Part shown: in pieces, positions 1-1,133 of the stretch
How the letters are laid out: every line of letters starts with the position of its first letter
How positions within the stretch are numbered: position 1 is the first letter of the stretch
Assembly (NCBI GenBank): GCA_963798915.1
Contig: CAWCVB010000002.1
Location: 512,001-576,000 of the forward strand
Direction: 5' to 3'
Origin: an uncultured Gemmatimonadales bacterium
GTDB taxonomy: Bacteria; Gemmatimonadota; Gemmatimonadetes; Gemmatimonadales; GWC2-71-9
DNA: 64,000 bases
Program-made: the position numbers and the translations under genes
The notes under the pieces: generated by a model
Told to the model about the DNA's origin: nothing
Databases searched by the model: none
What the model saw: only the letters and a program-made list of their open reading frames with translations

Positions 1-62
1 TTGATCGCCGAGAGCCCGAACAGTTGCCGGGGGCTCTGACCCCGCATCACGCAAGGCTGGGC
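1..62 (+). ncRNA. 3' part (donor-binding loop) of an IS110 bridge RNA
   Basis: ACAGTTGC at 20-27 is identical to the element's own right end (1035-1042); followed by inner hairpin CGGGG/CCCCG and GCAAG-GCTGG (51-60), the same layout as the IS621 donor-binding loop. Confidence 0.75.
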
Positions 63-93
63 CACGCCGATCGTGTCTCGTCAGGAGCGACCC

Positions 94-1026
94 ATGGACT
101 GCTGCATCGGCATTGATGTCTCGAAGGCGATGCTCGACCTCGCCTCCCTCCCCGATGGGGAGCGCTGGACCGTCACCAATGACGAGCACGGCCTGGCCGA
201 GCTTGCCCCACGCCTCATCGCCCTCGCCCCGAGCCTCATTGTCCTGGAGGCCACCGGGGGCTTTGAGTTCCTCGCCGCCATCACCTTGGCGAAGGCCGGC
301 CTGCCCGTGGCTGTCGTGAATCCCCGTCAGGTCCGCGATTTCGCCAAAGCCTTGGGGCGCCTCGCCAAGACCGATGCCCTCGACGCGGCCATCCTCGCGG
401 ACTTTGCCCAGCGGATTCGCCCGGAGCCCCGCGCGCTGCCGGATGAAGCGGCGCAGCTGCTCGAAAGCCTACTGACACGCCGTCGGCAGATCGTCGAGAT
501 GCTGACCGCGGAGAAGAACCGGCTGGGCTTTGCCCGGGGCCCGGTCAAGCGCGATATCAGCCAGCACATTCGCTGGCTCGAGAAGCGGCTGGCCGACGTC
601 AACGGCGACCTGCAGGAGGCCGTCGCGGCGAGTCCGCTGTATCGAGCCAAGGCCGAGCTCCTGACCAGCGTACCCGGCGTCGGGCAGGTCACGACGCTCA
701 CGCTCCTGGCCACCCTCCCTGAACTCGGTCAGCTCTCACGTCACCAGATCGCGGCGCTCGTCGGCGTGGCGCCCATGAATCGGGATAGCGGCACGATGCG
801 CGGCAAACGGATGGTCTGGGGCGGCCGGGCACCCGTGCGGGCGGTGCTCTATATGGCGACCCTCGTTGGCATCAAGCACAACCCCGTGCTCCGAGCCTTC
901 TACGCGCGGCTCCGGGCCGCCGGGAAGCCCTTCAAGGTCGCCGCCACAGCCTGCATGCGAAAGCTGCTCACGATCCTCAACGCGATGCTCACGCACAACC
1001 GCCGGTGGAACGCAGAACACGCTTGA
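94..1026 (+). CDS. IS110 family transposase/recombinase
   Basis: DEDD motifs [20 protein letters not shown]-terminal SVPGVG and RDSG serine loop; AGGAG RBS before ATG 94. Confidence 0.96.
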
Positions 1027-1041
1027 CTTTCGAGACAGTTG

Positions 1042-1133
1042 CTAACGCCTTAGCTTTCAGCTGCAAGCACACTACCACCAATGCGGCGAAGCCGCATCCG
1101 AAAAGTGCTTGTCAGCTGCAACGTGTGTTAGGC
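1042..1133 (-). other. integron attC site, R' box interrupted by the IS110
   Basis: Minus strand: GCCTAAC-ACACG-TTGCAGCTG(A)CAAGCAC...GTGCTTGCAGCTGAA...GTTAG; imperfect palindrome with unpaired extra bases in the R''-L'' arm. Confidence 0.8.

Follow-up and report, generated by a model that had tools for sequence, protein, structure and literature searches.

The 64-kb window analysed here (the whole stretch of 64,000 nucleotides (nt) of contig CAWCVB010000002.1, from an uncultured Gemmatimonadales bacterium) begins inside an insertion sequence (IS) of the IS110 group, IS621-type, whose right end is joined to an integron attC site. We conclude that this copy is very probably an IS621-like bridge-RNA insertion sequence naturally programmed to the R′ core of attC. 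Window positions 1-1043 hold the 3′ ~90% of the element, which totals ~1.15 kb in its Gemmatimonadales-type host; the first ~104 nt lie beyond the window edge. The conclusion is carried by sequence comparisons that establish the family of the recombinase, the ends of the element, the structure of a leader RNA by covariation, the correspondence of guides with ends and with insertion flanks in relatives, and the identity, position and orientation of the attC.

The transposase open reading frame (ORF), at 94-1026, is intact. Its product carries the two domains of IS110-group recombinases, an N-terminal DEDD RuvC-like domain (DEDD_Tnp_IS110, PF01548, E 5.4e-24) and a C-terminal Tnp domain (Transposase_20, PF02371, E 4.7e-19), and matched NCBIfam NF033542, ‘IS110 family RNA-guided transposase’, with 230.7 bits (cut-off 140). 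Among solved structures (PDB, E up to 0.001) only ISCro4 (E 1.6e-40) and IS621 (E 5.7e-36) were retrieved, with residues 5-299 aligned. The layout is also that of the IS110 group, with a long non-coding left end (at least 93 nt for the window copy and 179-222 nt for the majority of full relatives) and a short right end: just 17 nt separate the stop codon from the CT, and the element closes with ...GAGACAGTTG-CT at 1032-1043. The core CT occupies 1042-1043 and AAC follows directly at 1044-1046. The repeated ACAGTTGC (20-27 and again 1035-1042) and the GCAAGGCTGG at 51-60 were, like the CT and AAC, found where they had been described. No second copy of the IS was found in the 64-kb window.

A scan of a genome collection gave 79 related loci (given L numbers below), and a relative from Escherichia coli, L080, brought the set to 80. 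Loci with 97-72% protein identity all came from Gemmatimonadota metagenome-assembled genomes (MAGs), nearly all labelled Gemmatimonadales, and the window protein is 97% identical to that of L001. The remaining loci (~56-66% identity) are mainly from Nitrospirota, with others from Gemmatimonadota, Chloroflexota, Cyanobacteriota and further groups. No close DNA relative was present in PLSDB plasmids (best match 65% coverage, 63.6% identity) or in E. coli genomes, where the distant L080 was the one relative. The ends were defined by comparing multi-copy genomes (one MAG with five loci, another with four) and all upstream and downstream stretches of the loci. Both ends were found in 75 of the 80 loci and the left end in 77. 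The left end of the relatives is CTTGTATCT, i.e. CT-TGTATCT, which lies ~195-220 nt upstream of the ATG in most loci (197 nt in L001), and their right end reads ..ACAGTTG-CT. Three bases on each side of the donor sequence are complementary and co-vary (AAG/CTT 28, GAG/CTC 9, AAC/GTT 5). The motif TTGAC[AT] stands at the same place in 50 of the 75 right ends, and TATCT[TC] was met in 60 of the 77 left ends; the two would stand 17 nt apart if the ends were joined. TTGAC[AT]-N17-TATCT[TC] across the joined ends (TTGACT plus TATCTC for the window copy) may be the junction promoter of a circularised element.

Some relatives deserve a separate remark. L080 (E. coli NZ_CP148746.1, locus 611-1779) has the ends of the lineage, CT-TGTATCT ... 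ACAGTTG-CT; its target loop fits its own flanks, the right flank ATGCT being both predicted and seen, and it sits between a type I restriction gene and an IS3 element. In-frame stops were met in the straight translation of L019 (four), L056 (one), L040 (two) and L069 (six), which are probably decayed copies or assembly errors.

The part of the leader present in the window aligns with the 3′ half of the leaders of full-length relatives, and the missing ~104 nt correspond there to the left end, a 5′ hairpin and the target-binding loop. Sixty distinct leader segments aligned well (alignment A1), and RNAalifold on A1 returned two stem-bounded internal loops with 26 predicted pairs, 16 of them with compensatory changes. 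The covariation test was restricted to the 22 pairs of five clean helices, with 500 column shuffles as control. Standard pairs occurred in 95.6% of cells against 81.3% in the shuffles, compensatory changes were found in 15 of the 22 pairs, and none of the 500 shuffles reached any of five measures; these controls are limited by the relatedness of the sequences and by the derivation of the structure from the same alignment. Sliding the partners by 1-3 columns lowered pairing to 34-49%. As described for the IS110 group, the leader would thus form an RNA with two internal loops, of which the window holds the donor-loop half.

The second internal loop, which the window shows at 14-62, is the donor loop. 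Its outer stem (A1 columns 102-106 with 154-158) is paired in 96.6% of cells. Of the 73 alignable loci, 72 carry on its 5′ side a 7-nt guide that equals the last 7 nt before the right-end CT. Five variant right ends (ACAGTCG, ACAGGTG, ACGGTTG, ACAATTG and ACAATCG, together 14 loci) are each mirrored in the guide; the 8-mer repeat seen in the window is therefore not due to chance. The 3′ side of the loop reads AU-(2-3 nt)-GCAAG. We infer that GCAAG pairs with CTTGT through one G.U (at T5) and that AU pairs with A6-T7 of CTTGTAT, which would make seven donor bases read discontiguously. Both donor guides would then fit the element's own ends around the CT core, the right one with one G.U and a bulge. 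A discontiguous right-donor pairing is likewise described for IS621 in a passage of Durrant et al. (2024).

One expectation failed. The original prediction had back-calculated a left end starting CT-TGC(G), on which it had staked itself beforehand, and the relatives show CT-TGTATCT. The calculation went wrong because the right-donor pairing from GCAAG is discontiguous and includes a G.U. For the same reason the miss does not refute the model, since GCAAG pairs with CTTGT by G.U wobble, in the discontiguous manner of IS621. Another pairing is conceivable in the window copy, where AGAGCCC (11-17) can pair with GGGCTCT (31-37) and would place the donor guide in a hairpin loop. It is probably incidental, since relatives lack such complementarity.

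The first internal loop of the leader, read from the relatives, is the target loop. The guide-flank comparison used 70 of the 77 loci with a left end (seven were dropped for short flanks or alignment gaps), with guides re-paired to flanks of other guide classes as control (2000 re-pairings). Compared with the reverse-complemented right guide, the right flank (5 nt after CT) agreed on average at 4.61 of 5 positions (control 1.66 ± 0.11, maximum 2.07). The left flank (7 nt before CT) matched the left guide at 4.34 of 7 positions (control 2.90 ± 0.12, maximum 3.34), with the better of two registers taken for the real data and the controls. Right guides fell into 25 classes, 20 of which predicted the consensus flank exactly. 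Leader folding and guide reading, as the original prediction had proposed them, could be carried out on the relatives, where the target-loop guides fit the insertion flanks as in the IS110 group.

A right guide ending GTTAG (..CGTTAG) was present in 27 loci, whose left guide ends GC-CU or GU-CU. Right guide ..CGTTAG and left guide ..GC-CU therefore specify GC-CT-AACG as target: ..CGTTAG is the complement of CT-AACG, the R′ core, and GC-CT-AACG is the bottom-strand R′ core GTTAGGC plus the first spacer base. A target guide matching the GTTAG core had been foreseen, and the right guide of the relatives is of just this kind (that of the window copy lies outside the window).

To describe the sites themselves, a covariance model (R1, alignment A2) was built from 25 intact array attC palindromes in the flanks of related loci, excluding sites at IS junctions. 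R1 had one significant match in the 64-kb window, at 1041-1133 (E 3.7e-8), which places the CT core inside the R′ box of an attC as had been claimed. The R′ remnant is CTAAC (1042-1046) and R″, GTTAGGC on the plus strand, lies at 1127-1133. A strict regular-expression and folding scan for attC sites returned nothing from the window, because the sole site is disrupted by the IS. In 18 of the 25 GTTAG-guide loci whose right flank is long enough, such a site begins where the IS ends on the right, in every case on the IS-sense strand, in line with the expectation that other copies would lie in attC sites. The reconstructed empty sequence of relatives contains arrays of up to six attCs per 4.8 kb. 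As imperfect palindromes of 58-143 nt, these attCs combine RYYYAAC/GTTRRRY boxes with an asymmetric spacer that adjoins a 6-bp box; on the IS-sense strand, their 3′ arm carries two bulges of one base each at a distance of 6 bp. Several arrays (around L012, L013, L015, L016, L025, L051, L056, L001 and L021) also hold other IS, of the IS30, IS481, IS3, IS21 and IS256 types and further IS110-family members.

In classical attCs, extrahelical bases on one arm define the bottom strand that is recombined. The arrays of the relatives follow the order of one ORF then one attC; the longest ORF is opposite to the IS strand in 18 of 21 inter-site units, co-oriented from cassette to cassette, with a start usually 16-60 nt from the preceding core. 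The ORF strands and the bulge arm therefore identify the IS-sense strand as the attC bottom strand and the split box as R′, not R″. A single cassette is visible in the window, in the order core GTTAGGC (minus strand, 1781-1775), ORF (1757-1278), attC (1133-1041), IS; its minus-strand ORF is in line with the R′ assignment. Read on the cassette strand, R′ is split by the insertion as GTT-AG/GC; relative to the cassettes, the IS is antisense. Integron integrases cut attC between G and TT. Taking this cut site as a basis, the IS would lie 4 nt past (downstream of) the G/TT crossover.

Within arrays, occupied attCs matched the resident guides better than unoccupied ones, with 3.41 against 2.68 of 7 positions on the left and 4.82 against 4.36 of 5 on the right. 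Summed over both guides, the matches came to 8.2 against 7.0 positions out of 12 (Mann-Whitney test, one-sided, p 0.0015; n = 17 and 47, the sites not being independent). Recognition of a folded, single-stranded attC hairpin by the IS was considered and rejected: the left guide should then fit the sequence 3′ of R″, and by eye it does not in L009 and L010.

Guides have also changed within the lineage. The four loci L004-L007 of one MAG, 85% identical to the window protein, carry the right guide ..CCCTAG instead of ..CGTTAG; the right flank is CT-AGGGT in three of them and CT-AGTAT in L005, and none of the four has an attC nearby. This is a clear case of natural retargeting inside the window's own clade. 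With the ..CCCTAG guide, the target-loop DNA of the element itself becomes an almost perfect target (7/7 left matches). In L005 and L006 (~2240-2310) an IS is inserted in the left-target-guide DNA of another copy, giving a tandem partial left end, and L007 has, at ~2360, a 3-nt deletion within the left target guide compared with the three sister copies of the same genome. In a quick maximum-likelihood tree of 69 distinct proteins, 44 elements with other guides form one clade (support 95) that does not include the GTTAG-guide elements, all from Gemmatimonadota plus one Deferrimicrobium MAG, and the retargeted L004/L007 lie within a set otherwise made up of GTTAG-guide rows. The tree, being unrooted, gives no ancestral guide state, and it includes the frameshifted L019 and L056, which distort a midpoint root.

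Taken together, the upstream leader, the kinship with ISCro4 and IS621, the covariation of two loops, the right guide ..CGTTAG and the 18 of 25 loci agree with the original prediction of an IS110 element with an upstream non-coding RNA programmed against the attC core.

Several observations weigh against this conclusion. The target loop, left end and left flank of the window copy lie outside the window, so its guides are taken from relatives, and its right flank AACGC agrees with the guide-predicted AACGA at 4 of 5 positions. The left guide is weak at attC sites (3.41/7 for occupied sites) and poor beyond the core GC, with per-position match frequencies of 0.35, 0.13, 0.30, 0.70, 0.61, 0.70 and 0.78; this contrasts with IS621, for which passages of Durrant et al. 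(2024) report, from experiments, that mismatches were tolerated poorly. Seven of the 25 GTTAG-guide loci have no model-detected attC (L003, L008, L011, L023, L025, L056 and L032, the last with a weak match only). Folded alone, the L001 leader is not more stable than its shuffles (z 0.60), so the support for the leader structure is comparative and not thermodynamic. A permissive-threshold Rfam search of window positions 1-3000 gave no bridge-RNA family, only sub-threshold chance matches. No integron integrase was found in the window by profile search, nor among 76 ORFs (at least 170 amino acids (aa), third-position G+C content above 0.6) that lie within 2.5 kb on either side of 25 loci, although arrays can be much longer; ‘integron’ therefore refers here to attC structure and array organisation. 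A tyrosine recombinase at 32490-33275 was rejected as an integron integrase (28.5 bits on TIGR02249, cut-off 265). Finally, transcription and transposition are deduced from sequence only, and the same applies to RNA expression, to a circular intermediate with a junction promoter, and to the activity and target loop of this copy.

The missing integrase gene would also be expected if the palindromes were not integron attCs but another class of repeats, whether like repetitive extragenic palindromes (REPs) or otherwise, in which the IS targets a short contained sequence. The presence of one such site in the window would fit this explanation, as would the seven same-guide copies at core-sharing sites without a detectable attC, which suit recognition of sequence alone, and a spacer beside the R box of 5 nt against 2 nt, unlike in classical attCs. 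We nevertheless consider it improbable. The sites have the canonical RYYYAAC/GTTRRRY box pair in imperfect palindromes of the length given above, with the two bulges 6 bp apart on one arm, and between them lie single, mostly co-oriented ORFs that begin 16-60 nt after the core and mostly have no family match; the integrase search of the flanks covered just 2.5 kb of arrays that can run much longer. Integrons have moreover been reported in Gemmatimonadota, as mentioned in a review.

Granting that the sites are attCs, the insertion could still be the accident of an inactive relic and not a programmed habit. The single copy in the window, the loss of its left part beyond the edge, and the stops in the related L019 and L056 could be read in this way. 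Yet the ORF is intact and 97% identical to that of L001, relatives occur in five and four loci per MAG, 18 independent junctions share the same attC position and orientation, and guides correspond to flanks over 25 guide classes, which makes a relic very improbable. We give still less credence to membership of the described IS1111-attC group (ISPa21, ISPst6 and ISKpn4 type) with a downstream seekRNA. Its outcome is the same, an IS with a DEDD transposase in attC antisense to the cassettes, according to passages of Leon et al. (2010), and ISfinder places both groups under ‘IS110 family’. But 17 nt after the stop codon leave no room for a downstream RNA, and the structured, co-varying RNA is upstream. 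The subterminal repeat is 3 nt long and not of the 7-17 bp said to define the IS1111 group, the only solved structures matched are IS621, of the IS110 group, and ISCro4, and IS1111-attC elements are placed near the 5′ end of attC in the source passages, whereas the window element is in the 3′ R′ core.

The interpretation as an IS621-like element programmed to attC agrees with IS621-type bridge recombinases in all sequence-level features of the group that were examined. The two-domain recombinase is the same as in IS621 and ISCro4, with a near full-length PDB match. A long left-end leader with a short right end, target and donor loops and a CT core are shared as well, and in both cases the left guides have the sequence of the top strand and the right guides are its complement. 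Passages of Durrant et al. (2024) further describe discontiguous pairing of the right donor for IS621 and, for the IS110 group, a subterminal repeat of 2-3 bp (3 nt here). The differences concern the target, which is REP sequences for IS621 (Choi 2003) and the attC R′ core here; the right target guide, of 4 nt in the Durrant et al. (2024) passages and of 5 nt plus core here; the left-guide matches at natural sites, much weaker here; and the hosts, here uncultured Gemmatimonadales.

The known attC-targeting IS110-family elements belong to the IS1111 group, as the original prediction had stated and as the literature passages on them agree. ISPa21, ISPst6, ISKpn4 and ISPa25 are likewise RNA-guided IS with a DEDD transposase, specific to array attCs and antisense to cassette transcription (in literature passages that include Leon et al. 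2010). They differ in that their seekRNA is described downstream of the gene, in a longer non-coding region that is absent here, in an insertion point that Leon et al. (2010) report close to the attC 5′ end and not in the 3′ R′ core, and in the subterminal inverted repeats, 7-17 bp in the Durrant et al. (2024) account of the IS1111 group against a 3-nt complementary pair here. The ISfinder label ‘IS110 family’ spans the IS110 and IS1111 groups alike, the IS1111-group ISPa21 being an example from literature passages. Group IIC-attC introns are also attC-specialised, insert into the bottom strand and stand antisense to cassettes (Leon et al. 2010, in the passages on these introns); unlike the present element they are retroelements (ribozyme plus reverse transcriptase) with an unrelated mechanism. 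ISPpu10, an IS110-group element of Pseudomonas putida, is described as using a natural site beside a DNA stem-loop that adds specificity beyond RNA-DNA pairing. Its target is a conserved intergenic repeat, unlike attC, and it may offer, by analogy, a parallel for the weak pairing of the left guide next to a structured attC. Two 2026 preprints, which may be relevant to the weak left-guide matches, report half-site recombination and a target stem-loop as an extra determinant in another IS110 element, respectively. In the literature searched, no IS110-group element with an upstream bridge RNA was found described as attC-targeting. Supplementary Data 2 of Durrant et al. (2024) includes 11 natural IS110 targets with GC-CT-AACG at the core position, of ~5,485; such elements are thus already public, though not discussed as attC-targeting.

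A mechanism can be proposed from these data. The left-end leader would encode the bridge RNA, whose donor loop would pair with the joined ends of the element (ACAGTTG-CT-TGTAT). The target loop, as read from relatives with 97-72% protein identity, would direct it through right guide ..CGTTAG and left guide ..GC-CU to GC-CT-AACG. Guided by the bridge RNA, the DEDD recombinase would recombine the circular form of the element with the CT, which is AG on the strand of the cassettes. Recognition would be dominated by the right guide (5 nt plus core), reading into the conserved attC, while the left guide would read the variable start of the next cassette, which it matches only in part.

Table 1. Positions in the window of the insertion sequence, the attC site and the adjoining cassette
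Feature	Position	Strand	Remarks
3′ half of the non-coding left-end leader: donor-loop half of the predicted bridge RNA and spacer to the ATG	1-93	+	Aligns to leaders of full-length relatives
Donor-loop outer stem, 5′ half GCCCG	14-18	+	Pairs with 58-62 (TGGGC)
Left donor guide ACAGTTG and two core-guide positions (CC)	20-28	+	Identical to right end 1035-1041
Inner hairpin of donor loop (GGGGG..CCCC)	29-43	+	Helices 4-5 of A1; one pair CG:32, GC:16
Right donor guide AU-CAC-GCAAG	46-55	+	Sequence seen in window; predicted to pair with left end
Transposase/bridge recombinase gene	94-1026	+	310 aa plus stop; Pfam, NCBIfam and PDB matches
Putative -35 box of junction promoter, TTGACT	1023-1028	+	Conserved place in relatives; presumed function
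Right end, made up of the subterminal repeat GAG (3 nt), the left donor ACAGTTG and the CT core	1032-1043	+	GAG co-varies with left end
attC, bottom strand on window plus strand, 93 nt	1041-1133	+	R1: 35.4 bits, E 3.7e-8; inverted repeats
Gene of the single visible cassette	1278-1757	-	159 aa; N-terminus resembles a lipoprotein signal peptide
Upstream cassette boundary	1769-1841	+	GCCTAAC at 1775-1781 and two more direct GCnGCAGCCTAA copies

Neither Pfam nor NCBIfam gave a family for the 159-aa product of the cassette gene. The cassette is headed by three direct GCnGCAGCCTAA copies, 30-31 nt apart, the first of which contains the core GCCTAAC. R1 did not match 1769-1841, and in the syntenic L023 (locus 3450-3540, with the same ClC channel gene nearby) the IS is inserted exactly in the GCCTAAC core. 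From its repeats, 1769-1841 may be an attI-like site with direct-repeat binding sites; no integrase gene is adjacent. A BLASTN comparison of window positions 1040-8000 with all locus flanks (E 1e-5) returned nothing, and the synteny with L023 was seen at gene level only, through the ClC channel. Low-complexity 7-nt units (GCTATGC, then CAGCGCT, then CACAGCG types), in direct and inverted repeats, fill 1940-2057 between this site and an OsmC-like gene (2058-2570, minus strand). Farther along, ~18500-33450 is a run of ORFs nearly all without a Pfam family, which ends in the tyrosine recombinase mentioned above (plus strand), with a tRNA-Cys (33372-33444, +) directly after it. This run resembles an island inserted at the tRNA gene, with no bearing on the integron question.

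The attC habit appears to be undescribed for the IS110 group, having been described previously only for another branch of the family; the known mechanism is unchanged. A wider proposition, which we hold tentatively and think rather unlikely to be right in full, is that a whole bridge-RNA IS lineage (transposases to ~58% identity, in Gemmatimonadota and one Deferrimicrobium MAG) has specialised on the one sequence common to all cassette junctions in the integrons of its hosts. It would have converged with IS1111-attC elements and group IIC-attC introns, but at the R′ crossover core, with recognition dominated by the right guide (7 nt inside attC, the left guide mostly mismatched) and possibly assisted by the attC stem-loop.

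If this is true, an IS 4 nt past the G/TT crossover would be the first part of the downstream cassette, and could lock neighbouring cassettes together or travel as cassette cargo by means of the integrase; such an element would be a parasite specific to integrons that has a second way to spread. Bridge-RNA recombinases are under development as programmable genome-editing tools, and natural cases reveal which targets are chosen by evolution and how much mismatch is tolerated in nature. The lineage offers a natural guide set for the integron core, retargeting within a clade (..CGTTAG to ..CCCTAG) and dozens of sites with one good and one poor guide, on which half-site or structure-assisted recognition becomes testable. 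For integron biology it represents a third, independent class of attC-invading mobile element and, unlike that of IS1111-attC elements, its position in the crossover core should interfere with cassette excision and capture.

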